Assembly: GCA_965222125.1 (NCBI GenBank) | Contig: CBDCTC010000001.1 | Span: 16,731 to 80,730 of the forward strand | Length of the DNA: 64,000 nucleotides | Direction: 5' to 3' | Source of the DNA: Dehalococcoidia bacterium | GTDB lineage: Bacteria; Chloroflexota; Dehalococcoidia; Lucifugimonadales; CAZENU01 | In this document: piece after piece, positions 1,158 to 40,351 of the stretch | Position numbering within the stretch: position 1 is the first letter of the stretch | How the letters are laid out: each line of letters begins with the position of its first letter | Position numbers and translations under genes: made by a program | Notes under the pieces: generated by a model | Seen by the model: only the letters and a program-made list of their open reading frames with translations | Told to the model about the DNA's origin: nothing | Database searches by the model: none

Positions 1158-2741
1158 ATGGGCAAGCCGAGGATGATGTTCTACCACGATGGGCGACATA
1201 GCCACATCTACCGCTATGAGCCGCCGATGGCCCCGGAAGAGTACACGGCGATGGTCGACGAGCTGGCGGGCACGCCGGTCGACGCCATCATGCTATGCCT
1301 GGGCGAGGGCAGAACGATGCTTCACGACACCCGCGCCGGCGAGCTGTGGGGTCACAACGTCGACAAGTGGGACCCGAAGGACATCGGCAACCTCGTGTTC
1401 CAGCGCGCGCATCGCAACGCGCGGGGCCTGATCGACCGCGGGCACGACCCGCTGCGCATCTTGTGCGACCGCGCCCATGACCTCGGCATGGCCCTGTACG
1501 CCACCTTGATTCTACAGCGAGGCGGAGTGAATCACGCCGGGACGCGCTGCTCGGACTTCCGCCGGGACAACCCGCATCTCGAGATAGGCGCCTGCGGCCG
1601 CCTCGGCCCCGACCACCCGGCGGTCGATCTCCTCGACTTCGCACACGAGGAGAGCCGCGAAGAGCGATTCGCGATTGTCGACGAGGTAATGGGCGACTAC
1701 CCGGTCGACGGCTTCGAGTTGCACTTCAACGCAATGCCGTACTACTTTCACCCAGACGACGTCGAGGCGGGCCGTCGGATCATGACCGATTGGGTGGGCC
1801 GTGTCCACGAGACGGTCAAACGCCGCGGCGTCGACAAAGAGCTGGTGGTGCGCGTCCCCGACCGGCTCGAGGATTGCGTTGCCCGCGGTCTCGATCCCGA
1901 AGAGTGGGTCAGGCGAGGAATAGTTGACGTCATAGTTCCCGAGGCAATCGGCGAGAACTACCAGGTCAAGCCGATGGCCGACTACGGCGAGTTTCTGTGC
2001 CTCGTCAAGGGAAGGAGTTGCCGCGTCCACGGGACGATCAACAGCGAGGTGTCGTCCGATCGATTGGCAGACGCGCCGGTGTCGATGATGCGGGCGATCG
2101 CGTGCAATCACTGGGCGCAGGGCGTCCACGGGCTGTACCTGTCGGAGTGGTTCAACCTGTGGCCGTACGAGGCGAGCGTATACGAGAAGCTGCGCGAGCT
2201 CCCGTATCCGGAGATAATGGCCGCCAAGGACAAGTTCTACCTGGTGCCGACGGAGGGCGCGGTTCCCCGAAGGTCTGGCACGCGACTGCCGAGGCGCTTG
2301 AAGACCGGCGAGCCGGTCGACGTCGCGTTGCGCATTGCGGACGATCTGCCCCGGTGGCACGCGAAGGGCCGGGTACATGAGGTGCTGCTGAGAGCCAGAG
2401 TAGTCGAGAGCACCGAGCTGGACCGGCTGGAGTTCCGGCTAAACGGCCGCCTGTTGCCGGACCACATGCTTCGGAAGATCAGCGAGGTCTACAAGATCAG
2501 CGGGCCGAGATACCGGGTGATGGGGGCCTACTGGTACGTGTTCAGGCTCGATCCCGGCCACTGGCCGGCCAACGGGGAAAACCTCCTCCGCGTCACGCTG
2601 AGCGAGCGCGACCCGGACGTTCTCGGCGACTCATGCGTGCTGCGGGACATCGAGTTGGAGGTCAAGTACCTGATGGGGCGGAGCTCCCCCAGGGGCTTCG
2701 TGGACCCCGATCTGGGCCCCTACGACCACTCCAATTCGTGA
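1158..2741 (+). CDS. GHL10-like TIM-barrel protein with C-terminal beta domain
   Basis: MMFYHDGRH start, GHDPLRILCDRAHDLGM, YPVDGFELHF, GVHGLYLSEWF. Divergent paralog of 1-1101. Confidence 0.7.
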   Translation: MGKPRMMFYHDGRHSHIYRYEPPMAPEEYTAMVDELAGTPVDAIMLCLGEGRTMLHDTRAGELWGHNVDKWDPKDIGNLVFQRAHRNARGLIDRGHDPLRILCDRAHDLGMALYATLILQRGGVNHAGTRCSDFRRDNPHLEIGACGRLGPDHPAVDLLDFAHEESREERFAIVDEVMGDYPVDGFELHFNAMPYYFHPDDVEAGRRIMTDWVGRVHETVKRRGVDKELVVRVPDRLEDCVARGLDPEEWVRRGIVDVIVPEAIGENYQVKPMADYGEFLCLVKGRSCRVHGTINSEVSSDRLADAPVSMMRAIACNHWAQGVHGLYLSEWFNLWPYEASVYEKLRELPYPEIMAAKDKFYLVPTEGAVPRRSGTRLPRRLKTGEPVDVALRIADDLPRWHAKGRVHEVLLRARVVESTELDRLEFRLNGRLLPDHMLRKISEVYKISGPRYRVMGAYWYVFRLDPGHWPANGENLLRVTLSERDPDVLGDSCVLRDIELEVKYLMGRSSPRGFVDPDLGPYDHSNS

Positions 2742-2820
2742 CGCGCGCGGAGGCGGGCAGGTTCGCAAGACTGAGTTGTGCGGGCCCTTCGGATACACCC
2801 CGCCCAAAGCGGCCGGGCAC

Positions 2821-2992
2821 TCAGCAACTGTCTCGGAAGTCAAGCGATTTGGGAGGCGTGGTGCTGGGTCGGGTCCCACCGAGCCTGGTCGCGCATCATG
2901 ACATTGATGATCGTCAGCAGCTTCCTCATCGCTGCGGTTAGCGCTACCTTCTTCGCCTTGCCCGCCGCGCACAGCCGGTCGATCCAGCTGAG
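2821..2992 (-). mobile_element. IS110-family transposase 3' remnant with element end
   Basis: Minus strand reads ...IDRLCAAGKAKKVALTAAMRKLLTIINVMMRDQARWDPTQHHASQIA* (stop 2840-2842), a typical IS110 C-terminus, followed by TTGACTTCCGAGACAGTTGCT. Confidence 0.75.
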
Positions 2993-3200
2993 TGTCGGTC
3001 TTCAATGACCTGGGCGACATCGATCTGTCACGCCCCTGTACCCTAATTCACCCTACCCGATTTCAAGATACAAGGGCGAACGGGCCGTGTGGGGACGGCC
3101 CCACCCCTACCAGGATTTCGATAACCACAGCACCGTCATGCCGAGAGCGGGAATCCACATAGAGCGGGCGGTGTTCCTCTCGGCAAGTCCGAACAGCCGT

Positions 3201-3902
3201 TTATCCCAGTGTGATCTTGACGACCCAGCCTGTCGTCGCGTCGCAGTAGAGCAGATCGTCGCCGAAGATCGACAGGCCGTGGGGCTCGGGCATTGCGTCG
3301 GGTATCTGGATTACGTCGAGCTCCCTGCCGGTGTCGATGTCCAGCTTGAGGATGCGCTTGGTCGAGCGGTGGGCCACCCACATTCCGTCGTCCACCCGGA
3401 CGATGCCGTGAGTGCCGCCGCCCAGCGTGATCGGGAACGACCGTACGACCGACCAGTCGTCGGCTGCCACCTGGCTGATCGTGTCGCTGTGTATCGTCGT
3501 CAGCCACAGCATGCCGTCCTCGAACCGGTCGTACTCGATGCCATGAGTGCCGCCGCCGCCCGGCAGCGGGAATCGGCCCAGCGTCGCGCCGGTGGCCGGG
3601 TCGGCCTTCACTATTTCGCCAGAGGCGGCGTCGGTCGGCCGCGGGGTTCTCCACCGCTCCCCCGGCCCGTTCGCGGCCAGCCACAGCGCGCCGCCGCCGT
3701 AGGTTATCCCGCTGGTCGTCGACGACTCCGTGGGCATGTGCCGCAGGATCCTGGTCGCGCCGTAGTCGTGCGGGTTGGCAGTCTCCACGAGAGCGACGCG
3801 GTCGGTTAGCTGGTCGACTATCCACAGGCCCTCGTTGGTAAGCTGCAGGCCGTTGGGGGCCGCGTATGGCGAGCGGAAGACTTTTTCGATGGTGGGGGAC
3901 AT
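3201..3902 (-). CDS. Beta-propeller protein (Vgb/SMP-30/glutaminyl-cyclase-like repeats)
   Basis: Repeated blades PNGLQLTNEGLWIVD, SGITYGGGALWLA, THGIEYD..MLWLT, THGIVRVDDGMWVA, PHGLSIFGDDLLYCD. RBS AAGGAG before ATG 3902. Confidence 0.65.
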   Translation of the reverse strand: MSPTIEKVFRSPYAAPNGLQLTNEGLWIVDQLTDRVALVETANPHDYGATRILRHMPTESSTTSGITYGGGALWLAANGPGERWRTPRPTDAASGEIVKADPATGATLGRFPLPGGGGTHGIEYDRFEDGMLWLTTIHSDTISQVAADDWSVVRSFPITLGGGTHGIVRVDDGMWVAHRSTKRILKLDIDTGRELDVIQIPDAMPEPHGLSIFGDDLLYCDATTGWVVKITLG

Positions 3903-3987
3903 TACTTCTCCTTCGGGAGCCGTCCAATCTGGGGGGCGACGCCGAGTCTATACCGCACACCCGAGGCCGTCAACGCGCTGCCGGCAG

Positions 3988-4040
3988 CTTGACACGTACG
4001 TGCGGGGAAACTTGACACGTAGGTGCGGGGAAATAAGAAT
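3988..4040 (+). promoter_or_regulatory. sigma70-like promoter with tandemly duplicated -35 region
   Basis: CTTGACACGTACGTGCGGGGAAA (3988-4010) and CTTGACACGTAGGTGCGGGGAAA (4011-4033). The second TTGACA is 17 bp from AAGAAT (4035-4040). Confidence 0.6.
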
Positions 4041-4079
4041 ATGCCGGCAACGCCACATATTCGACGTCTGGAGAAGCGC

Positions 4080-5162
4080 ATGATCAACCGCGACCGAATG
4101 GTGCAGACCTTCTGCGAGCTGGTTACGATCGACAGTCCGTCGGGGGAAGAGGCCGCCGTCGCGGAGTACCTTGTTGCCCGGCTCGGCTCGCTCGGACTGC
4201 AGGTCATGCGGGACGACTACGGCAACGTGATTGCGAGCGAGGGACGCGACAATCCCTTCATGCTGTCCGCCCATATGGACACGGTGGAGCCCGGCCGCGG
4301 GATCAAGCCGATTGTCGCGGACGACCGCATCTCCTCGGACGGCACCACAATACTGGGCGGGGACTGCAAGGCCGGCCTGACCGCGATCCTGGAGGCGCTG
4401 GACTCGATACATGAGGACGGCGCGGGACACATCCCCATTGAGGTCGTGTGCACGCGTGAGGAGGAGACCGGGCTGGTCGGCGCCCGGAACCTCGACTTCC
4501 CCGCGATCCGGTCGAAGGAGGCTATAGTCTTCGACGGCGAGGGCCCGGCGAACCAGATAACCTGGTCGAGCCCGACCTACATCGGATTCGACGTGCATAT
4601 CACGGGCCGGGCCGCCCACGCGGGCATAGACCCCGAGAGAGGGCTGTCAGCCATCCGGGTGGCGGCCGATCTGATCTCCCGTCTGCCGCAGGGAAGGCTC
4701 GACTCGGACACGACCTTCAACATAGGGACGATCGAGGGCGGCAACGTGAGGAACTCCGTCCCGGAGAACGCGTCGCTGAGGGGCGAGTTTCGCAGCACGA
4801 ACCTGGAGACCCTCGACGAGGTGAGCGTGAGGCTCTCGGAAGCGCTCGACGAGGTCAGGAACGGGTTCCCCGAGGCCGACGTGCAGGCGCACATCGAGAC
4901 CAGCTTCGAGACGTATACCCTGGACGAGGACGACCCGGCGACCAGAAGGATCAAGGCGGCGTTGGTCGACCTCGGCATGGAGCCGACCGCGAAGGCGTCG
5001 GGCGGCGGCACCGACGGAAACGTCTTCCGCACCAAGGGCATCAGCGCCGTCGCGGTGGGGATGGCGGACTACAATTTCCACACCGTGCGCGAATACGTGA
5101 GCATCCCGGAGCTGATGGACGCGGCCCACCTGTGCGAGAAGCTCGTCAGGGTGTCGGGCTAG
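4080..5162 (+). CDS. M20/M25/M40-family metallopeptidase (peptidase T-like)
   Basis: Metal ligands in SAHMDTV, GGDCKAG, TREEETG, VFDGEG and YNFHT; GRAAHAG. Start placed at ATG 4080 (RBS GGAG). Confidence 0.9.
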   Translation: MINRDRMVQTFCELVTIDSPSGEEAAVAEYLVARLGSLGLQVMRDDYGNVIASEGRDNPFMLSAHMDTVEPGRGIKPIVADDRISSDGTTILGGDCKAGLTAILEALDSIHEDGAGHIPIEVVCTREEETGLVGARNLDFPAIRSKEAIVFDGEGPANQITWSSPTYIGFDVHITGRAAHAGIDPERGLSAIRVAADLISRLPQGRLDSDTTFNIGTIEGGNVRNSVPENASLRGEFRSTNLETLDEVSVRLSEALDEVRNGFPEADVQAHIETSFETYTLDEDDPATRRIKAALVDLGMEPTAKASGGGTDGNVFRTKGISAVAVGMADYNFHTVREYVSIPELMDAAHLCEKLVRVSG

Positions 5163-30984: not shown

Positions 30985-31133
30985 CGGTCTTCTCCCCTCA
31001 GCGTCGAAGGTAGGAGGTGTGTCGAAGTGGGGCCAGTATATTTGCGGCCCCATGGAGCGTCAACCGGCGGAGGCGATGCGATCACGGCGTGGCGAAGGGC
31101 TGAGGACAGCTAAGTTGGTACACTGCGGGCGCT

Positions 31134-31387
31134 GTGCTGAAAGCAGTCATCTTTGACTTGTACGAGACGCTGATAACCCAGTTCGACCCCAACTGGAAGC
31201 CGCCGAAGATGTCCCTGGCGGACCGGCTGGGCATCGAGGAGGAGGCCTTCCGGCGCCACTGGGGACCGCTGGCCACCAATTGGCGTAAGGGCCCGCCCCT
31301 ACCGGTACGAGGAGGTGCTCGAGGCGGTATGCAAGTCCGCCGGCCGTGCGCCGGACCGACGGGCGATCGCCGAGCTTGCCGCGCGCT
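31134..31387 (+). pseudogene. HAD-family hydrolase, N-terminal part (frameshift near 31295; cut by insertion)
   Basis: MLKAVIFDLYETL (motif I), then +1 frame YEEVLEAVCK...IAELAAR ending at CGCT 31384-31387. Confidence 0.8.
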
Positions 31388-31469
31388 TCCCCTCGATCCG
31401 GCCCGCCTCGTAGGCCTCGCAGGTCGCGCAGATCGGCCGCGGGCAGCCCGCCGGGTCGTGCTCCGTCAT
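31388..31469 (-). pseudogene. Small Cys-containing element gene truncated at the left junction
   Basis: MTEHDPAGCPRPICATCEAYEAGRIEGK; ATG overlaps the TGA of the upstream ORF (ATGA). Confidence 0.45.
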
Positions 31470-31618
31470 CGGCCCGCCGCGGCCAAGGCTCGGGCCTTGC
31501 GGTCACGCCTCGACGCACGCACGCGGCAGCGGCTCGAGCACGTCCGACGCGACCGGCGAACGTGCGTCATGTAATGGCCGCAGTATGCGCAGCGCAGCTG
31601 TGGTTTCGCTGTGTCCAT
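31466..31618 (-). CDS. Small Cys-rich (zinc-binding-like) basic protein
   Basis: MDTAKPQLRCAYCGHYMTHVRRSRRTCSSRCRVRASR (CxxC...CSxxC). Confidence 0.55.
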   Translation of the reverse strand: MDTAKPQLRCAYCGHYMTHVRRSRRTCSSRCRVRASRRDRKARALAAAGR

Positions 31619-31929
31619 GCGTCTTAGTGTATCACAGTCGGCGCGTTTAGACCGGGGGGTAGGGTGATTTGTGAACGGGGGATTGTTGTCGACCATGTGG
31701 CCTTGTGCACGCGCATTTTCCGGCCAGAAAACTTGGGGCGGTCGCCTTCGACGTAGGCGTCTCGCAGTGGCTTGCGCTTACAGCGGTCGGTCTGTACGCT
31801 CCCCAATGTCACAGCAACCCAATTGCCGGTTTCGGATGGGAGCGTCATGTTCCCTCGTTGATGGTTGCCGGGCTGGGTTGCTGTGACAAGCTGACCATCC
31901 CAAATCTGTCAACGAGGGAACACCAACCA

Positions 31930-33171
31930 ATGGCACGTATCACGCTCATACTCGGATTGCTTGTCGGGCTTGCTATCCTGGCACTGGCTGGTTGCGCTGG
32001 CCCGCAAGGCGACGCCGGGCCGCAGGGTCAACCGGGTCCGCAGGGCGAACTAGGGCCGCAGGGCGACGCAGGGCCGCAGGGTCAACCAGGGCCGCAGGGC
32101 GACGCAGGGCCGCAGGGTCAACCAGGGCCGCAGGGCGACGCAGGCCCGCAGGGCCAACCAGGGCCGCAGGGCGACGCAGGCCCGCAGGGCCAACCAGGGC
32201 CGCAGGGCGACGCAGGGCCACAGGGCCAACCAGGGCCGCAGGGCGACGCAGGGCCACAGGGCGACGCCGGGCCGCAGGGTCAACCAGGGCCGCGGGGCGA
32301 AGTAGGCCCGCAAGGCGACGCCGGGCCGCAGGGCGAACCAGGCCCTACACCCACGCCGTACCCGACACCTGCGCCGCTGCCCACGGCGACACCTGCGCCG
32401 CTGCCCACGGCAACACCTGCGCCGCTGCCCACGGCAACACCTGCGCCGCTGCCCAGTTCGTGGAACGACCTTCACGACAGGCTACGGTTGGCCGGAACTG
32501 TAGTGGAAGTTTGCGCTAGCGGGAGCCTCTTTGCGGGATGCGGCACAGGATGGGTTTATGAAGAGGGATGGGTAATCACCGCCGCGCACGTGCTGGCCGG
32601 AGCACCATCTGCTCAAGTCGAAGTCCACATTAGCAGTCCTTCAGGGGGTCAGTGTAGCGGCAGCAGTTGCGAACGCGGTAGCCTCAACTGGTACAAGAGC
32701 TATGCCGCTCAATACATGGGCTCGGACAAGTACCGCGACATAGCAGCGGTCAAGTTGTTTGATACCGGCGGCTTACACCCTGCGCCGCTGCCCAGGCGGG
32801 ATATCGACTCTTTGGGAGCGGACGAAAAGCTTGTGCTCATAGGTCAGAGCGGAGGGCTGCCAGCTGAAGCGAAGGTCGGCGTGCTCTCTATTGTGCGGAC
32901 GATTGCCCACGCTGAAGAAGAGGTGCACGGAGCAATAACGGTCATTGAGCTTGCCATTAACACCGTTGCGGGTGACTCAGGCGGGGCCTACGTTGACAAG
33001 TACGGGAGTGTCGTGGGAATCGTACAGGGCCGTTTGCCAGGCGTTAGGAACCCCGGTAGGTCCGTAGGGTTGCCGATATCGGAGATAGAAAAGGTCTGGG
33101 AACGGCTGAAGGCCGGGGAGCAGCTGAACGACGACCTAAAGCACTGGATGCACTATGAGTTTGACCAATGA
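31930..33171 (+). CDS. Lipoprotein: collagen-like stalk, Pro/Thr linker and trypsin-like (S1) serine protease
   Basis: Lipobox LAGC; 39 uninterrupted Gly-X-Y triplets; (TPAPLPTA)n; catalytic triad ITAAHV / YRDIAAV / GDSGG. Confidence 0.88.
31999..32457 (+). repeat. Coding tandem repeats: 36-bp collagen unit (31999-32349) and 24-bp PAPLPTAT unit (~32366-32457)
   Basis: GGGCCGCAGGGCGACGCAGGGCCGCAGGGTCAACCA and variants; CACCTGCGCCGCTGCCCACGGC(G/A)A repeats. Confidence 0.92.
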
Positions 33172-33424
33172 CTACGACCGCCTTAGCTAAGGAGCGAGCT
33201 AAGTAACTTTCTTCGGGGGTAGCCATTCGGTCTAGGCCGGATTCGGAGCGATCCCAAATTCAGCCAGGCCCAGGTCGTCGTCGTCGATCTTGAGGCCGTT
33301 GAGGTAGTCCAGGCCGACCAGGGCGGCTGGGCCAGCCATGTTGTTCTTGCCTGGGCCGTCTGGCGGCCAGCGGAGGGTCTTGCGGGGGAAGCTGGCGGGC
33401 CGCCCCACGCGGCCCCGCCCGCTT

Positions 33425-33457
33425 CCCCCCCCCTACCTTGTAGGGTAGGGGTAGGGG
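33425..33457. other. C-run/hairpin and TAGGG repeats downstream of the Rep-like gene (candidate origin element)
   Basis: CCCCTACC-TTGTAG-GGTAGGGG inverted repeat and three TAGGG units. Confidence 0.35.
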
Positions 33458-33496
33458 AGCCCGATTCCGTATCTACAGACGGCCGAAACGGCGCAG

Positions 33497-34883
33497 CTAA
33501 TCTAGTCCTGGGGGGAGAATCCGGTAACCGTCCGGCGTGTGGTCGATCACCACGTCGCCCGCGTCGGCCAGCGCTCCGAGATGGCCCGGCGCGCGTTCGC
33601 GCGCATCCTTCCGCGCCGGGCCGCCTGAGAGCGGATAGAACAGGTCGGCCAGCGCGTCGGGGTCGTACACGCGGTACCGCGCCGGATCGGGGTTGCGCAG
33701 CCAAACGCGACCACGCTTCACGGGGAAGCTGGTTTGACCTGGGTTGTACCAGTCGTAGGCAAGGCCGATCAGCGCGTTGTAGGCCGCCCCAGACTGCGCG
33801 CCCCACTGCTGAAGTGAGTCCGGGATGATCGGCCCCGCGTTGCTCGCGCCGGGGGGGAGCCGTACGGAGATGGTCAAGTCCGCGTCCAGGTCGTGCGGTA
33901 TGCCCAGCACGGAGACCACGCGCCACATGACGCGCCCGTGACCCTCGTCGACGGGGAAACGCGCGTCCATGCCGTCCAGCGCTACGGCGGCGTCCTCCAC
34001 GTCACGGGCGATCCGGGGCGTGGAGATGGTCTTGTAGCTGGCGGGGTACAGCCGCCGCCGAATCTCGCGCAGCGACACGCGCATATCAACGCCGCCTGGG
34101 CCGCCGCGTTCCAGCTGCGGGGCCAGTAGGACGGCCTCGACGAACAGTCGCAAGGCCAACGGCGCGCCATGTCCTTGCCTGCGCGCATCGATGCCGCGTC
34201 CCAGGCCGTACAGCGCCAGCGGGAACGCGGGGCCTGTCCGGGGCCGTTCGAAGCCGGGTAGCCACAGCTGCCCGCCCGCGTCTTGGCCCTGCCGCAGACG
34301 CCGGCATGAAGAACCGGCGCGTGCGCGGATCGCCGCGGCCCGCCATCCCAAGACCGGCCGGTAGGATGCGGCCGTCCCGCTGATTCGGCGCGGCCCTAAG
34401 CTGCACACGCTGCCACGCTCGAATCAGTGGCGGAACCGGGTTCAGCGGGTAGTCGGCGGGCTGAGGGTCGGGCCTGAATTCCCGCCACAGCTGCGCAATG
34501 TCAATCAGGTTGTCGGCCACTGTCGGCCGCCGCGGCCAGCGGCAATAGGCGGCGCGCGTTGCGGTAGCGTCGACAGTGGCCGGGCTGTCCGACATTCTGT
34601 ATTTGGCCAGTACCGGCCCGACCGATGGGTTGATAGGCATCCCAAGGCCAACGAAGCCGGAAGCGGCCGATTCGGAGTAGGTGTAGCGGCCCTGTATCCA
34701 GTCAAGCAACCCCTCGAACCGCTGCCACGCTTCGGCCAGTCCGTCGGCCATCCCGTCCGCGTACAGGTCGGCGGCCAGTGTCTCCCACGTGAGAACGGCG
34801 AAATCAGGGCCGGACGCCCCGTCGTTGTCGTCCGCCCACAGCCAGCGCGACCAGGCGTCCAGGTACTCGTCCGTCAATCTCAT
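33497..34883 (-). pseudogene. Large hypothetical, putative replication-initiator-like protein with frameshift (~34285-34300)
   Basis: MRLTDEYLDAW...RILPAGLGM...FFMPASA continues in the +1 frame as GQLWLPGF...PLALY...GAPLALRLFVEAVL...AYNALIGLAYDW...GYRILPPGLD. Start coupled (ATGA) to the upstream helicase-like fragment. Function inferred from position only. Confidence 0.45.
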
Positions 34884-35143
34884 CGTGGAAATGGCCCCTG
34901 CGGCGCGTCGGCGGCCCACGTGGGCGCGGGGGTGACTGACAACACGCCGCCGTTGTCCTGGGCCAGCCATACCTTCGCGGGCTGCTGCCCGTAGTTCGTT
35001 TTCTCGCACGTCAAGACCAGGGCGTCCCGCTGATTCGGCGCGGCCTTGCCGTTCGGCGTCGGGCCTTTCTCGGTTTCGTGAGCCAGCGTCCAAACGGCGC
35101 GATGGGCCGCCAGCCAGTCCGTCGAGCCGCTGAAAGGAACGCT
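34880..35143 (-). pseudogene. 3' fragment of an AAA_25/RepA-like replicative helicase, cut at the right junction
   Basis: PFSGSTDWLAAHRAVWTL...LVLTCEKTNYG resembles the RepA-type helicase C-terminal motifs (GSxAWxxxxR; KxNYG). Confidence 0.5.
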
Positions 35144-35622
35144 GCGAGAGCAGGCTGCCCCCGTTCGAGAACGTCGAGTCTCCGATCGTCGAGCTGGTCG
35201 ACGCCCTTCGATCACGCGGGTTGAGGCTCGGCGTCGTGACGAACGCCGCGAGCGGCGACGTGGAGCCATGGTCCCGGTGCCGGCTGGCGCCGCGATTCGG
35301 TGCGTTCATCGCCTCCTACCGTGTCGGGATGCTCAAGCCCGACACGCGAATCTACGAGTGCTGCTTGGAGGCGTTGGGGGTGACTGCCGCGGAGGCGTCT
35401 TTGTTGGAGACTCCGGATACGAGGCGATGAACGAGCTGGACGGCGCCATGCGCGTCGGCCTGAGGCCGTTCTGGGCCACGTGGTTCCTGGACCGGTGGCG
35501 GCCCGGCACGCGGCGGATGCCCGGGCGAGAGCCTCCATTTCCCGCCTGCGCGCCCCACGGACCTGCTGGACGTGGTCCTCTGCGAACTGGACAACCAGTT
35601 AACCCTGGGGGTGTTTTCGTGA
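35144..35622 (+). pseudogene. HAD-family hydrolase, C-terminal part (further frameshifts near 35400 and ~35545)
   Basis: LGVVTNA (motif II), VGMLKPDTRIY (motif III), FVGDS (motif IV) in a shifted frame. Confidence 0.8.
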
Positions 35623-35903
35623 ACGGGCAAAATCGCGAATAGCGACCTGAGTTGTTATCGGCTCCGCGAATAAGGCCTGTTGCGGGCCGTGGTTGTTTGC
35701 GATAACAGGCAAAACCGATAATAGCGGCCTGGGCTATTATCGCCTCCGCGAACAAGGATTGCTACGGGCTACGCTTGTTTGCGATAATGGGCTGAAACGA
35801 TAATAACGGTCTGGGCTATTATCACCTCCGCGAACAAGGGCTGCTACGGGCTGCGCTTGTTTTCGTGAAGGGGCTTCAACGATAATAACGGTCTGGGCTA
35901 TTC
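35610..35903. repeat. Non-coding tandem array, ~3.5 copies of an 82-bp double-hairpin unit
   Basis: CTCCGCGAA at 35662, 35744, 35826 (period 82). Per unit: CGATAATAGC-N7-GCTATTATCG and GCGAACAAG-N17-CTTGTTTGC. Confidence 0.88.
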
Positions 35904-35915
35904 TCATCGCCGCTA

Positions 35916-37088
35916 ATGAGAGACAACATGGTTTCCGCGTCTGAACGAGCACGCCAGCCTCACGGTCGTATCGTGGACTGCCTCGGCGGCTACCGGGCCT
36001 ATGTTCCGGCGCCGCTCCCGCCGCCGATGACGTGGAACGCCAGCCTCACCTTCGAGTTGTCATCCGCCGACCGTGCCATCGGGAGGCTCGCGGGCGAAGG
36101 ACGGCGTTTGCCCAATCCCCACCTGCTTATCCGGCCCTTCGTGCGCAAGGAGGCGGTGCAGTCCAGCCGGATCGAGGGAACACAGGCGACCCTCGGGGAG
36201 CTGCTCGCCGACGAAGCCGGGGCCGCCGTCGAGCGAAGCCCCTCCGACCTGAGGGAGGTGGGCAACTACGTCGTCGCACTGGAGTACGGCCTGGGACGCC
36301 TGGAGTCGCTGCCCGCGTCGCTGCGCCTGGTGCGCGAAATGCACGACCTCCTGATGCGGGACGTTCGGGGCGACGCGGCCGCCCCCGGGGAGTTTCGGCG
36401 CAGCCAGAACTGGATCGGGTTTCCCGGGTCGACGCTGAGCCAGGCCACTTACGTCCCGCCGCCGCCGGCGGAGCTCATGGGCTGTCTGGACGCTTGGGAG
36501 CGGTTCCTGCATGACGAGACCCTGCCGCCGCTGGTGCACGCCGCGGTCACCCATTCCCAGTTCGAGGCGATTCATCCGTTCCTCGACGGCAATGGGAGGA
36601 TTGGACGCTTGCTCATCACGCTTCTGCTGGTCCAGCGGGACATCATCCCCTCGCCGCTGCTCTATCTCAGCTCCTACTTCGAGGCCACGCGTCAGGAGTA
36701 CTACGCGCGCCTTCTCGGCGTCACGGAGCGAGGGGAATGGGAGGAGTGGCTGGCCTACTTCCTGAGAGGCGTCGCCCTGCAGGCCCGGGACGCCGTGGAC
36801 AGGATACAGCGCATGGACGATCTGCTCTCTGACTGGAGACTGCGGCTGTCCACAGGTTCGTCTAGCGCGTCCGAAAGGGTGCTCGATCTGCTTGCCGAGA
36901 ACCCCTTCTGCACGGTGCGCGGCCTGGCGGACCGGCTGGGTGTGGCGTTCACGACGGCCCAGCGCGCCATCGGCCGCCTGGAGGAGGAGGGCTTCGTCGC
37001 ACTCGTTGGGGAAGCGCGGCGCAATCGGGTATATTGCGCGCGAGCCATTCTCGACGTGCTGGAACAGCCTCTCCCCCGCGCGGGCTAG
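35916..37088 (+). CDS. Fic-family protein (Fic_N + Fic + C-terminal wHTH)
   Basis: HPFLDGNGRIGR active-site motif; N-terminal inhibitory motif SSRIEG. Confidence 0.93.
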   Translation: MRDNMVSASERARQPHGRIVDCLGGYRAYVPAPLPPPMTWNASLTFELSSADRAIGRLAGEGRRLPNPHLLIRPFVRKEAVQSSRIEGTQATLGELLADEAGAAVERSPSDLREVGNYVVALEYGLGRLESLPASLRLVREMHDLLMRDVRGDAAAPGEFRRSQNWIGFPGSTLSQATYVPPPPAELMGCLDAWERFLHDETLPPLVHAAVTHSQFEAIHPFLDGNGRIGRLLITLLLVQRDIIPSPLLYLSSYFEATRQEYYARLLGVTERGEWEEWLAYFLRGVALQARDAVDRIQRMDDLLSDWRLRLSTGSSSASERVLDLLAENPFCTVRGLADRLGVAFTTAQRAIGRLEEEGFVALVGEARRNRVYCARAILDVLEQPLPRAG

Positions 37089-37102
37089 AGCTTCGGTGAG
37101 CT

Positions 37103-38194
37103 ATGACTGAATCAGACAGAGTAGAGCCGTTCTCCACGTTCGTGGTGGGGAGCCTGCCCAGGCCGGTCTGGGTGCGGGAGCTGATCCTGGACCGCAAAGC
37201 CGGCCGCATCGGCGAGGCGTCCGCCGACCGGTTGCTCGACGCGGCAATTCCGACGGCCGTCCGCCTGCAGGAGCGCGCCGGCCTCGACTACCTGTCGGAC
37301 GGCGAGTGGCGGCGCGAGAGCTACACGAGGGTGATGTCTGAGGCGGTCGATGGCTTCCGGAACGACCTGATCCCGGTTGGCGACCCCGCGCCGCCGGACA
37401 TGGCGTACCCGGCCGTCGTTTCCGAGCTGCGGCGCAGGCGCTCGCTTGCCGCGGGCGAGGTGTCGTTTTTGCGCGGGCAGACCGACTCGAAGATAATAGT
37501 CGCGCTGCCCTCCCCGTACATCATCGGATGGCGCATGTGGAGCGCGGAGCACTCGCCCCCGGCCTACCCGACGCGGGAGGAGTTCATGGCGGCCTGCACC
37601 GAGATCATCCGCGAAGAGGTGCGGGAGCTGTCCGAGATGGGCGTCGACGCGGTCCAGATCGACGACCCCGACATGGCGATGCTGGTCGACCCGTCGTACC
37701 GGGAGCGGATGGGCATCACCGACGTCGACCGCGAGATCGAGCTGTCGATTCGGTGCGTCAACGGGGCGGCGGCCGACGCGGGCGATACCCTGGTCAGCGT
37801 CCACTTCTGTCACTCGCACTTCGACCGGCGCCACACGACCACCGGCCCCTACGACCTGATAATGGAGGCCCTGGGCGAGATGGACGTCGACCGGCTCGCG
37901 ATGGAGTTCGCCACTCCCGACGCGGGCGGCATCGACTCGCTGCGGCGGTTCCCGTCGGACAAGACGCTGGGGCTGGGTGTCGTCGACCACACCGACCGCC
38001 ACGTGGAGACGCCGGAGGAGATCGTCGAGCAGGCCTCGCGGGCGATGGAGCACGTGCCGGCCGAGCGGCTGACGCTCAACCCGGACTGCGGGTTCTCGCC
38101 CTCCAGCCTGAACCCGACCGATATCGACGAGGCCTATCTGAAGCTGAAGGCGCTGTGCGCCGGAGCGCGCATGCTGCGCGAGCGACACGGGTAA
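37103..38194 (+). CDS. Cobalamin-independent methionine synthase II-family (core MetE-like) protein
   Basis: VVGSLPRP, SDGEWRRESY, VQIDDP, Zn ligands HFC / E (MEFA) / C (NPDCGF). Confidence 0.88.
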   Translation: MTESDRVEPFSTFVVGSLPRPVWVRELILDRKAGRIGEASADRLLDAAIPTAVRLQERAGLDYLSDGEWRRESYTRVMSEAVDGFRNDLIPVGDPAPPDMAYPAVVSELRRRRSLAAGEVSFLRGQTDSKIIVALPSPYIIGWRMWSAEHSPPAYPTREEFMAACTEIIREEVRELSEMGVDAVQIDDPDMAMLVDPSYRERMGITDVDREIELSIRCVNGAAADAGDTLVSVHFCHSHFDRRHTTTGPYDLIMEALGEMDVDRLAMEFATPDAGGIDSLRRFPSDKTLGLGVVDHTDRHVETPEEIVEQASRAMEHVPAERLTLNPDCGFSPSSLNPTDIDEAYLKLKALCAGARMLRERHG

Positions 38195-38627: not shown

Positions 38628-40351
38628 CCCGAATCCACCGATGGACATGGATGGACGGCGTGAGGACAGTGGAAGAGGAGTGAGGGAGTTACAGGGGCGA
38701 TGATCCGGGCTCGAATTCGGGTAGACGGGAGGTTGGCGGGGGGTCTGCAGGCGCTTTTGGGGGCGCCAATGGCGGTCTGCGATGGGCGCTGTGGGACAAG
38801 ATGAGGACAGAGGACGCGGCAAGAGGCGCTCGCGGACCAGGGTGGCGCGAGTTGGCGGGGACGTTCAGTTGGCCTGATGGCGGGTCAGTGGCAAACGGGC
38901 GCCGTCAGGTCGGGAGTGGAATGGCTCGCAATCGAGCCAGGGCGCGAGTGAACTGGGTTTCCCAGGGCCAGCCCTGTGGCAGATGCAAAGTGAGGCGGCG
39001 GGCCGAGCGGGTGAGCCGTCCGGCCAGGGAGAAGAAGCGCCGCCGGAGGGTCCTGGTGGTCACCACCCCCTCGCCCAGACCGATGCGGGCTGTCCAGCGG
39101 GCCAGGTTGTGGGCCATCACCTGGACCGCCAGCCAGGCGGCGTTGGCGGCGAAGCGGCCCGAGGGGAGATGGTTGAGTCCGACGCCGTACTTCAGGTCTC
39201 GGATGGCATTCTCGATCTCGGCGTGGCGGCGGTGGTCGGCCTCCAGTTCCAGGGTCTCCCCGTCCCGGTCGGTGATGAAGCCGTGATAGCTGTAGGTGGC
39301 GAAGAGGGCCAGTTGGGAACCGGGCGTGGGCTTCACCCGCCGCACGATGAGCCGTACCGGCGCGGCGTCGGGCTCACCCTGGAAGGGGGTGTAGGTGATC
39401 TCGGCCACATCGGCGGCGCCGTCCATCCAGTATGGGATGGGCGTCCAGTCCGCCTCGGGTATGGCCTCGATCAGGTTCCGCAGGCTTTTGTGCTGCCGGA
39501 TGGTGATGGAGAAGCGCACGTCCAGCTTGCGGCAGACGACGACCAGGGCGTGGGTGTAGAAGCCGCTGTCGGCCCGCACCGTGAGTTGTCCCCTGGCCCC
39601 GCCGTAGCGCACCCGCCCCACCGTTTCCCGCAGGAAGTGGGCGGCGCCGCGGGCGGTGTTGGCGCGGCCCTCACGCAGCCGGGCCATCAGCACGTCGCCG
39701 GTTCCGGCGGCAATGGCCAGCAGCGGGTGATAGCCCCGCTTGCCGGTATAGCCGTGGTGGCGGGCGCCCTCCTTGGCCAGTCCGTAGGTCTCGCAGATCG
39801 TCGAATCAAGGTCGATGGTGAACGGTGCGTCGCTGGGTCCGGCCCCAGCCGCCCAGGCCTGGGCCAGCAGCTCCCGGCTCACCCGGTCCAGTTGGCGGAC
39901 ATGGCCCCACCGGAAACTGCGCAGGAAGGTGCCCAGGGTGGAGGGCGCCTTGACCGTGCCGCCCAGGGTGCGGGCTGTCCCCCCGGTGCGCAACACATCG
40001 GCGTCGTCAATACAGTCGCCGCCAGCCAGCGCAGACGCAACCAGGGTCATCATCTTGTCGCCCGTGTTGGCCCGGCCCGGCGCATTGCCCAGGTCGAGGC
40101 ACTGCTGGACGAGTTGGGGCAGGCCGAGGCGCAGGGCGAGGGTGGCCGGAAGGAGCAGCCCGGCATTGGCCACCAGGCGGTGGTCGTCGAAGGCGATACG
40201 GATGCGGTCGGGGTGGTGGCGTGGTAGCATCTATTGGGTGCTCCTTTTCTGGGGTGGGTTTCGTGTTTCAAAACCATTATCCCAGATTCATGGGGGCACC
40301 CTCTCGCTTCTTCAAGGGCTGTCCCCAAGGCCCTCCTTCGGTGGATTCGGG
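38628..40351 (-). mobile_element. IS1380-family element type A, complete copy (1,724 bp)
   Basis: TIRs CCCGAATCCACCGA / TCGGTGGATTCGGG. No clean TSD (flanks TAAG / CTAA). Confidence 0.88.
38905..40230 (-). CDS. IS1380-family DDE transposase (type A)
   Basis: IDLDST, YHPLLA, LREGRANTA, VRADSGFY, HAEIENAIRDLK, LPSGRFAANAAW. Confidence 0.92.
   Translation of the reverse strand: MLPRHHPDRIRIAFDDHRLVANAGLLLPATLALRLGLPQLVQQCLDLGNAPGRANTGDKMMTLVASALAGGDCIDDADVLRTGGTARTLGGTVKAPSTLGTFLRSFRWGHVRQLDRVSRELLAQAWAAGAGPSDAPFTIDLDSTICETYGLAKEGARHHGYTGKRGYHPLLAIAAGTGDVLMARLREGRANTARGAAHFLRETVGRVRYGGARGQLTVRADSGFYTHALVVVCRKLDVRFSITIRQHKSLRNLIEAIPEADWTPIPYWMDGAADVAEITYTPFQGEPDAAPVRLIVRRVKPTPGSQLALFATYSYHGFITDRDGETLELEADHRRHAEIENAIRDLKYGVGLNHLPSGRFAANAAWLAVQVMAHNLARWTARIGLGEGVVTTRTLRRRFFSLAGRLTRSARRLTLHLPQGWPWETQFTRALARLRAIPLPT

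Follow-up and report, generated by a model that had tools for sequence, protein, structure and literature searches.

The DNA analysed here is a stretch of 64,000 nucleotides (hereafter the window) from a metagenome-assembled Dehalococcoidia (Chloroflexota) genome of 3.75 Mb in six contigs. The entire intergenic space between the remnant of a HAD-like gene and a gene for a Fic protein is occupied by a tandem array:

35611..35921, plus strand: the whole array, delimited by TRF, by HMM and covariance-model matches to four units, and by alignment of the units.
35928..37088, plus strand: SoFic/CccR-type Fic-wHTH protein of class II, with 386 aa counted from the ATG at 35928 (the reading frame is open from 35916 too), assigned by Pfam, PADLOC and PDB matches, by motifs and by the association between its helix and the boxes described below.

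TRF reports a single array at 35622-35902 with a period of 82, 3.4 copies, 82% matches and no indels; the unit model finds four 82-bp units that begin at about 35611, at 35692, at 35774 and at 35856 (in the register of the R1 box, below), the fourth of them extending to about 35921 in the Shine-Dalgarno region. Slices of 82 bp are identical between units at 58-68 of the 82 positions; at 52%, the GC content of the array is below that of the window (65%) and of the flanks (68%); and CGATAA/TTATCG occurs seven times in the array and 20 times in the whole window. The original prediction, made from the letters alone, of about 3.5 units with an exact 82-bp period, richer in AT than the flanks and with CGATAA recurring at least seven times, is thus borne out, as is its statement that the array is not CRISPR: instead of conserved repeats and unique spacers, entire units are homologous and their variation is diffuse. 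It had the array end 12 bp before the Fic start, which needs correction. Two in-frame ATGs are present at the start of the gene (35916 and 35928, the latter four codons short of the longest ORF); GAGAGA at 35918-35923 would serve as the ribosome-binding site of the second, and orthologues align from 35928, so that the functional start is more likely 35928 than 35916. Because the start is placed there, unit homology reaches the ribosome-binding site. An independent contig from run X1, whose sample may be the same, covers 35300-37300 with zero differences. BLAST and a genome search place the 82-bp unit at one site only in the genome, and the array is the sole genomic cluster of at least three boxes.

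The downstream gene does encode a Fic protein with a wHTH and an inhibitory SSRIEG motif, as had been proposed. Pfam assigns it PF13784 Fic_N (3.5e-27), PF02661 Fic (1e-20) and, at residues 321-365, HTH_24/MarR; and the translation contains both SSRIEG and an intact catalytic HPFLDGNGRIGR, which fit (S/T)xxxE(G/N) and HxFx(D/E)GNGRxxR, respectively. The order Fic_N, Fic, C-terminal winged helix together with both motifs is that of SoFic/CccR-type class II proteins. SoFic of Shewanella oneidensis, a single-gene anti-phage system in PADLOC, AMPylates EF-Tu; the array's Fic protein, likened to it by sequence, is a full-length match to the PADLOC SoFic model (E = 6.3e-119, 355 of 361 model positions) and also matches the PDB entries of SoFic and related proteins. 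The recognition helix of its wHTH reads VAFTTAQRAI. A MetE-like gene (Meth_synt_2, the catalytic domain of cobalamin-independent synthase) lies at 37103-38194 on the same strand, 15 nt past the Fic stop; its position is conserved in the genus, and it may share a transcript with the Fic gene.

Each unit contains four conserved boxes of 8-10 bp, of the CGATAATA type and its inverse, namely R1 (CTTGTTTGCG), L2 (CGATAATAAC), R2 (GCTATTATCA) and L1 (CGCGAACAAG). In an alignment of 17 units from four species they stand out as four conserved blocks with variable sequence between them (consensus CTTGTTTGCG for R1, CG(A/C)TAATAA for L2, GCTATTnTC for R2 and C(C)GCGAAnAAG for L1). Their order, measured start to start, is R1-22-L2-19-R2-12-L1-29-R1, and 22 + 19 + 12 + 29 = 82. 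The boxes pair into two imperfect palindromes per unit, O2 (L2 with R2) and O1 (L1 with the next R1), and the box next to the ribosome-binding site of one cassette is also the first box of the next:

35774..35783, plus strand: R1 box CTTGTTTGCG, right half of operator O1, from conserved columns in alignments of 15-17 units and the R-to-L distance of 22 also found in single-copy orthologues.
35692-35701 and 35856-35865, plus strand: further copies of R1, with a degenerate copy at about 35611-35619.
35798..35824, plus strand: putative operator O2 of unit 3, L2 CGATAATAAC, 7-bp spacer, R2 GCTATTATCA, from the inverted repeats, an L-to-R distance of 19 as in 23 of 28 orthologue palindromes, and columns that lack RNA-stem covariation.
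35716-35742 (a perfect palindrome) and 35880-35906, plus strand: further copies of O2, with a degenerate copy at 35634-35660.
35829..35865, plus strand: putative operator O1, L1 CGCGAACAAG, 17-bp spacer, R1 CTTGTTTTCG, 29 from start to start as against the canonical 19.
35747-35783 and 35665-35701, plus strand: further copies of O1.
35911..35923, plus strand: terminal L box CGCTAATGAG, the counterpart of the L box that single-copy orthologues have 12 bp after R2; it overlaps the Shine-Dalgarno-like GAGAGA.
35759..35788, plus strand: best sigma-70-like candidate promoter, TTGCTA-18 nt-GATAAT, from a promoter scan (one match vs. 0.3 expected) and the same layout in orthologues.

The same palindromes had been described from the sequence as hairpins, O2 as stem 1 and O1 as stem 2 (or hairpin 2). 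Inverted repeats are indeed present in each unit, but the proposed 10-bp stem CGATAATAGC/GCTATTATCG is perfect in unit 2 only, and across the 17 units from four species stem 1 averages 6.7 of 10 Watson-Crick pairs.

An 82-bp array sits at the same position, between the HAD-like gene and the Fic orthologue, in three other species of the genus, whose flanks share 94%, 89% and 82% identity with the window. It comprises four to six units in the genus, with at least four kept in all four species although the flanks differ by 6-18%. Interspecies identity is 76% in box columns and 48% in spacer columns, a contrast that gene conversion among units could inflate on the side of the boxes; the boxes are conserved in internal and distal units alike, and the distal unit 1 is the most degenerate in the array.

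Searching 401 genomes of the order with a unit model built from sequence only returned 34 with matches, and in 25 of the 30 unit-bearing loci that were fetched a Fic gene follows immediately on the same strand; most of these genes are intact, and five are frameshifted or truncated. No Fic gene was detectable at the remaining five loci. Most loci carry one cassette and some two or three, and the window's genus carries four to six. The repeat period is 82 in three families, about 126 in another family and 153-162 elsewhere, and from these differing periods it follows that the Fic 5' region has been tandemly duplicated repeatedly. The repeats of about 126 bp (2684-3010 in locus L042, genome G250; also L100, L103, L104 and L106) span the ribosome-binding site, the GTG start and about 15 Fic codons; therefore it is the Fic 5' region itself that is duplicated. 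Every upstream copy might thus, in principle, be translated into a short N-terminal peptide.

Cassettes without an intact Fic gene occur at 3860-4100 of locus L013 (genome G024) and in L109, L113, L116, L122 and L105. In G024 two cassettes lie between convergent abhydrolase and NHL-repeat genes; L113 and L116 keep 5' coding remnants, the first codons of the gene; and L105 retains only Fic residues 1-46. The Fic-less cassettes resemble the remains of Fic loci that have lost the gene to decay but kept the operators, and the idea that such "orphan" units are independent elements was rejected on the same resemblance in the loci examined. In sister genomes, additional single unit-like matches away from the main array were seen at G003:C2:291071-291134, at G004:C3:1270571-1270643 and in G301 (four, dispersed).

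The boxes are not a peculiarity of the order. We inspected the 130 nt upstream of each start codon at 80 loci with relatives of the Fic protein from many phyla, and found the box in both orientations upstream of nearly all orthologues with at least 55% identity, among them those of Alphaproteobacteria, Planctomycetota, Elusimicrobia, Acidobacteriota, Omnitrophica, Nitrospirota and others. In the 44 orthologues of at least 55% identity, CGNWAAYA or its inverse occurs 8.4 times per kb in the 200 nt upstream, compared with 0.31 per kb in the rest of the loci. The spacing is also restricted: of 28 L-to-R distances 23 measure 19, and of 42 R-to-L distances 28 measure 22, with 12 as the value immediately ahead of the start codon. 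These fixed spacings define a canonical single-copy layout, L-19-R-22-L-19-R-12-L-start. The array unit uses 22, 19 and 12 exactly, and its fourth spacing of 29 is 19 + 10, the arms of O1 being 10 bp, or one helical turn, wider apart than in the canonical orthologues.

The boxes follow the protein. Without correction for phylogeny, a helix of the form (V/I)A(F/Y)TTAQRA tracks CGNWAAYA boxes (38/6 vs. 1/34, Fisher p = 5e-15), and orthologues with other helices have other, locus-specific palindromes, for example CTTTGAAAG, TGCAATAAG, GTGAATAAG and ATGATACTTTC; within a locus all boxes are one sequence, which changes with the recognition helix. No neighbouring gene is common to the 47 closest orthologous loci, nearly all of them box-bearing, and the Fic-wHTH protein is the only constant partner of the boxes in this set. 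The search for the unit throughout the genome and upstream of Fic homologues, which had been suggested as a check, thus returned one genomic site and boxes ahead of orthologues in many phyla; a unit scattered irrespective of Fic genes, which was to count against a functional link, is not what it found.

The candidate promoter is placed within this layout. Its TTGCTA (35759) falls within the O1 spacer, and GATAAT, preceded by a TG (TG-n-GATAAT), follows directly after R1 and ends at 35788; the call is a consensus match in a Chloroflexota genome, and the proximal cassette has no recognisable −10. In orthologues, a TTGACx-like −35 lies in the spacer of the first palindrome (O1) in five of ten and in the second palindrome in one of ten, and TATAAT-like −10 hexamers lie between O1 and O2. 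The layouts of array and orthologues, both read from consensus matches, therefore agree in setting inverted-repeat boxes at the gene's own −35/−10. As the first palindrome straddles the −35 in orthologues, it lies upstream of the transcript. For the window, transcription is predicted to start near 35795, with a 5' UTR of about 130 nt that would hold two further operators. An alternative promoter was considered, TTGTTT in R1 and, 18 nt on, GATAAT in L2, but it fits the orthologue layout less well and is hard to square with a metatranscriptome contig that begins at 35856.

That contig is one of two, covering 35934-36177 and 35856-36044 (runs X23 and X24), which are short and of low depth and match the Fic gene at about 90-93% identity, one of them coming from a sponge metagenome. 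They suggest that relatives of the organism are transcriptionally active in such samples; the beginning at 35856, in a relative of about 91% identity, is weakly compatible with a start upstream of the last cassette.

Taken together, our results make it likely that the array repeats, four times head to tail, the promoter-operator cassette by which a Fic-wHTH gene of the SoFic/CccR type is autoregulated, the repeats probably being DNA sites for protein binding rather than structured RNAs. Among the readings first offered, an operator array for the wHTH of the Fic protein is the one that our data favour: the boxes stand on a fixed lattice across phyla, they co-vary with the recognition helix, and the family offers precedents in CccR and SoFic. 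The lattice, its conservation, the link to Fic and the helix-box co-variation are direct observations; physical binding, the transcription start and a benefit of multiple copies we infer. The Fic protein is presumed to be the repressor that binds the boxes. Its dimers would bind the O1 and O2 palindromes through the C-terminal winged helix, and this binding would repress the promoter in an internal cassette, with the −35 in the O1 spacer and the −10 immediately behind R1; beyond the start site, further cassettes could serve as an additional roadblock or as cooperative sites. The usual arrangement offers two palindromes and a fifth box, whereas the whole array would offer about eight dimer sites, which might shut off a toxic AMPylating enzyme more tightly or more cooperatively, or else act as a buffer for the free protein.

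CccR, a Fic-wHTH toxin of Yersinia pseudotuberculosis, protects AGATAATCAT-N26-ATGATAATCT at its own −35/−10 and represses, for which the dimer is required (PMC9755527), and for SoFic, specific binding of the dimer to the 100 bp that precede its own start codon has been shown (bioRxiv 10.64898/2026.07.09.737422). Together these data establish autoregulation through inverted repeats for the family. The array's Fic protein shares with CccR the domain order and the N-terminal inhibitory S/TxxxE(G/N) motif, and the core of the CccR half-site, AGATAAT, resembles the CGATAAT box of the array. However, the CccR operator is one palindrome pair whose spacer measures 26 bp, whereas the array has spacers of 7 and 17 bp and a fourfold cassette, so that the dimer geometry may differ; and CccR is a T6SS effector, while nothing suggests a T6SS role for the array's Fic protein. 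For SoFic, we know of no description of an operator sequence or a tandem array. A further parallel, among other defence or toxin-antitoxin loci with several operators, is AbiEi, a wHTH protein that represses its own toxic operon via several inverted repeats, to which it binds cooperatively (PMC7319586); such systems have two repeats in one promoter and are not known to use a periodic lattice of repeated cassettes. To what is known of CccR and SoFic the present locus adds a candidate operator lattice, L-19-R-22-L-19-R-12-L, common to phyla, and the map of helix-to-box specificity could guide binding work.

Why there are several cassettes is a separate matter. The multiple copies could be a neutral by-product of slippage or unequal crossover in the Fic 5' region, in which the gene-proximal cassette or cassettes matter and distal units drift; we consider this unlikely. 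It would account for the variation by lineage of copy number (1-6) and period (82, about 126, 153-162), for the 91% likeness of units 2 and 3 in the sister genome G003, which points to recent turnover, for the degeneracy of distal unit 1, and for the useless coding sequence that the 126-bp repeats drag along. Drift of the distal units does not readily fit the conservation of boxes in internal and distal units beside nearly randomised spacers, or the retention of at least four units in four species across the flank divergence given above, and the recurrence of expansions in several families suggests that they are tolerated or favoured. The contrast between boxes and spacers in all units thus argues for constraint on the extra copies, and the turnover in copy number for some neutrality. 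Whatever their origin, cassettes repeated two to six times within one order form a natural dosage series in which operator number could be set against repression, cooperativity and the noise of a toxic defence gene.

A more elaborate possibility, which we regard as improbable, is that the array is a selected docking platform: its approximately eight dimer sites would keep the bulk of the cell's SoFic-type enzyme bound to DNA and couple occupancy to AMPylation, and the repeated, independent expansions in Dehalococcoidia would reflect that selection. In Coxiella CbFic2, DNA binding reportedly switches activity. If the array were such a platform, its letting go of the enzyme upon phage infection or under stress would lift repression of the gene and at the same time set the toxin free.

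The reading of the repeats as DNA operators has also to be weighed against one in which they act as RNA. The units had been proposed to be transcribed double hairpins, which could serve as a cis leader whose alternative stems hide the ribosome-binding site or as an antitoxin or decoy of the type III kind; we now find this quite improbable. In its favour, both strands fold better than shuffled sequences (z = −3.2 and −3.7), a terminal TCTCAT/ATGAGA stem overlaps the ribosome-binding site, the relative's contig at 35856-36044 spans the last unit and the Fic start, and a promoter in an internal unit would put about 130 nt of the array into the transcript. However, folding shows no strand asymmetry, and the two strands fold nearly equally well, as expected of palindromic DNA, so that folding does not discriminate RNA from DNA. 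Compensatory base-pair change is absent from stem 1, where 69.1% of cells are paired as against 69.7% after shuffling; two of its ten pairs fail to form in 12-13 of the 15 units; and the mismatch positions are constant over 17 units from four species, being mostly A·C on the plus strand (23, vs. 5 G·U). Such persistent mismatches fit two similar but distinct half-sites, not a selected helix. Moreover, one "loop" of the orthologues holds the −35 and its palindrome lies upstream of the transcript, and the single box sequence per locus changes with the recognition helix. A search of 35300-36200 against Rfam at E up to 10 gave no match in the array, only chance miRNA/sRNA matches outside it. The "double hairpin" is instead a by-product of imperfect palindromic operators, whose stems keep the same mismatches across species.

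The likeness to type III toxin-antitoxin systems goes little beyond tandem direct repeats immediately upstream of a toxin-like gene. In ToxIN, CptIN and TenpIN the units are of about 34-40 nt, are transcribed and are cut by the endoRNase toxin, and a terminator precedes the toxin gene. The array, in contrast, has a period of 82 bp, and its Fic protein is an AMP transferase with its own inhibitory helix, in which only Fic_N, Fic and wHTH domains were found and no endoRNase of the ToxN/AbiQ/CptN/TenpN type. Between array and gene there is no terminator: a scan found none in the last two units before the gene, and its only plus-strand match, at 35674-35688, is in unit 1 and not beside the gene. 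Together with the constant mismatches and the −35 in a "loop", this leads us to set aside the type III-like reading. The locus also holds a caution for genome scans, as tandem "hairpin" repeats next to a toxin gene can be operators and not RNA antitoxins.

That the repeats represent an origin or iterons left by a defunct replicon, or else a miniature mobile repeat tied to a 3.76-kb insertion and an IS-rich island, is barely credible and was rejected on synteny: an AT-rich tandem repeat in a GC-rich genome with IS elements nearby might suggest it, but sister species without the insertion keep the array in place, and the unit occupies one genomic site and, in other genomes, accompanies Fic or decayed Fic loci. 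A dispersed repeat of the MITE/REP kind likewise does not agree with a single locus in 3.75 Mb, and the earlier suggestion of a non-autonomous mobile repeat fails on that single site and on the Fic genes directly downstream at 25 of 30 loci in the order.

Three sister species lack the insertion itself (31380-35136, about 3.76 kb), and in them 31000-31380 abuts 35136 onward; as these relatives bear the array, the array is unrelated to the inserted DNA. The insertion splits the HAD-like gene and carries a gene for a collagen-repeat/trypsin-like protease at 31705-33171. Just downstream of the Fic/MetE pair, a DDE_Tnp_1_4 (IS1380-like) transposase gene at 38905-40230 on the minus strand lies at the edge of an IS-rich stretch.
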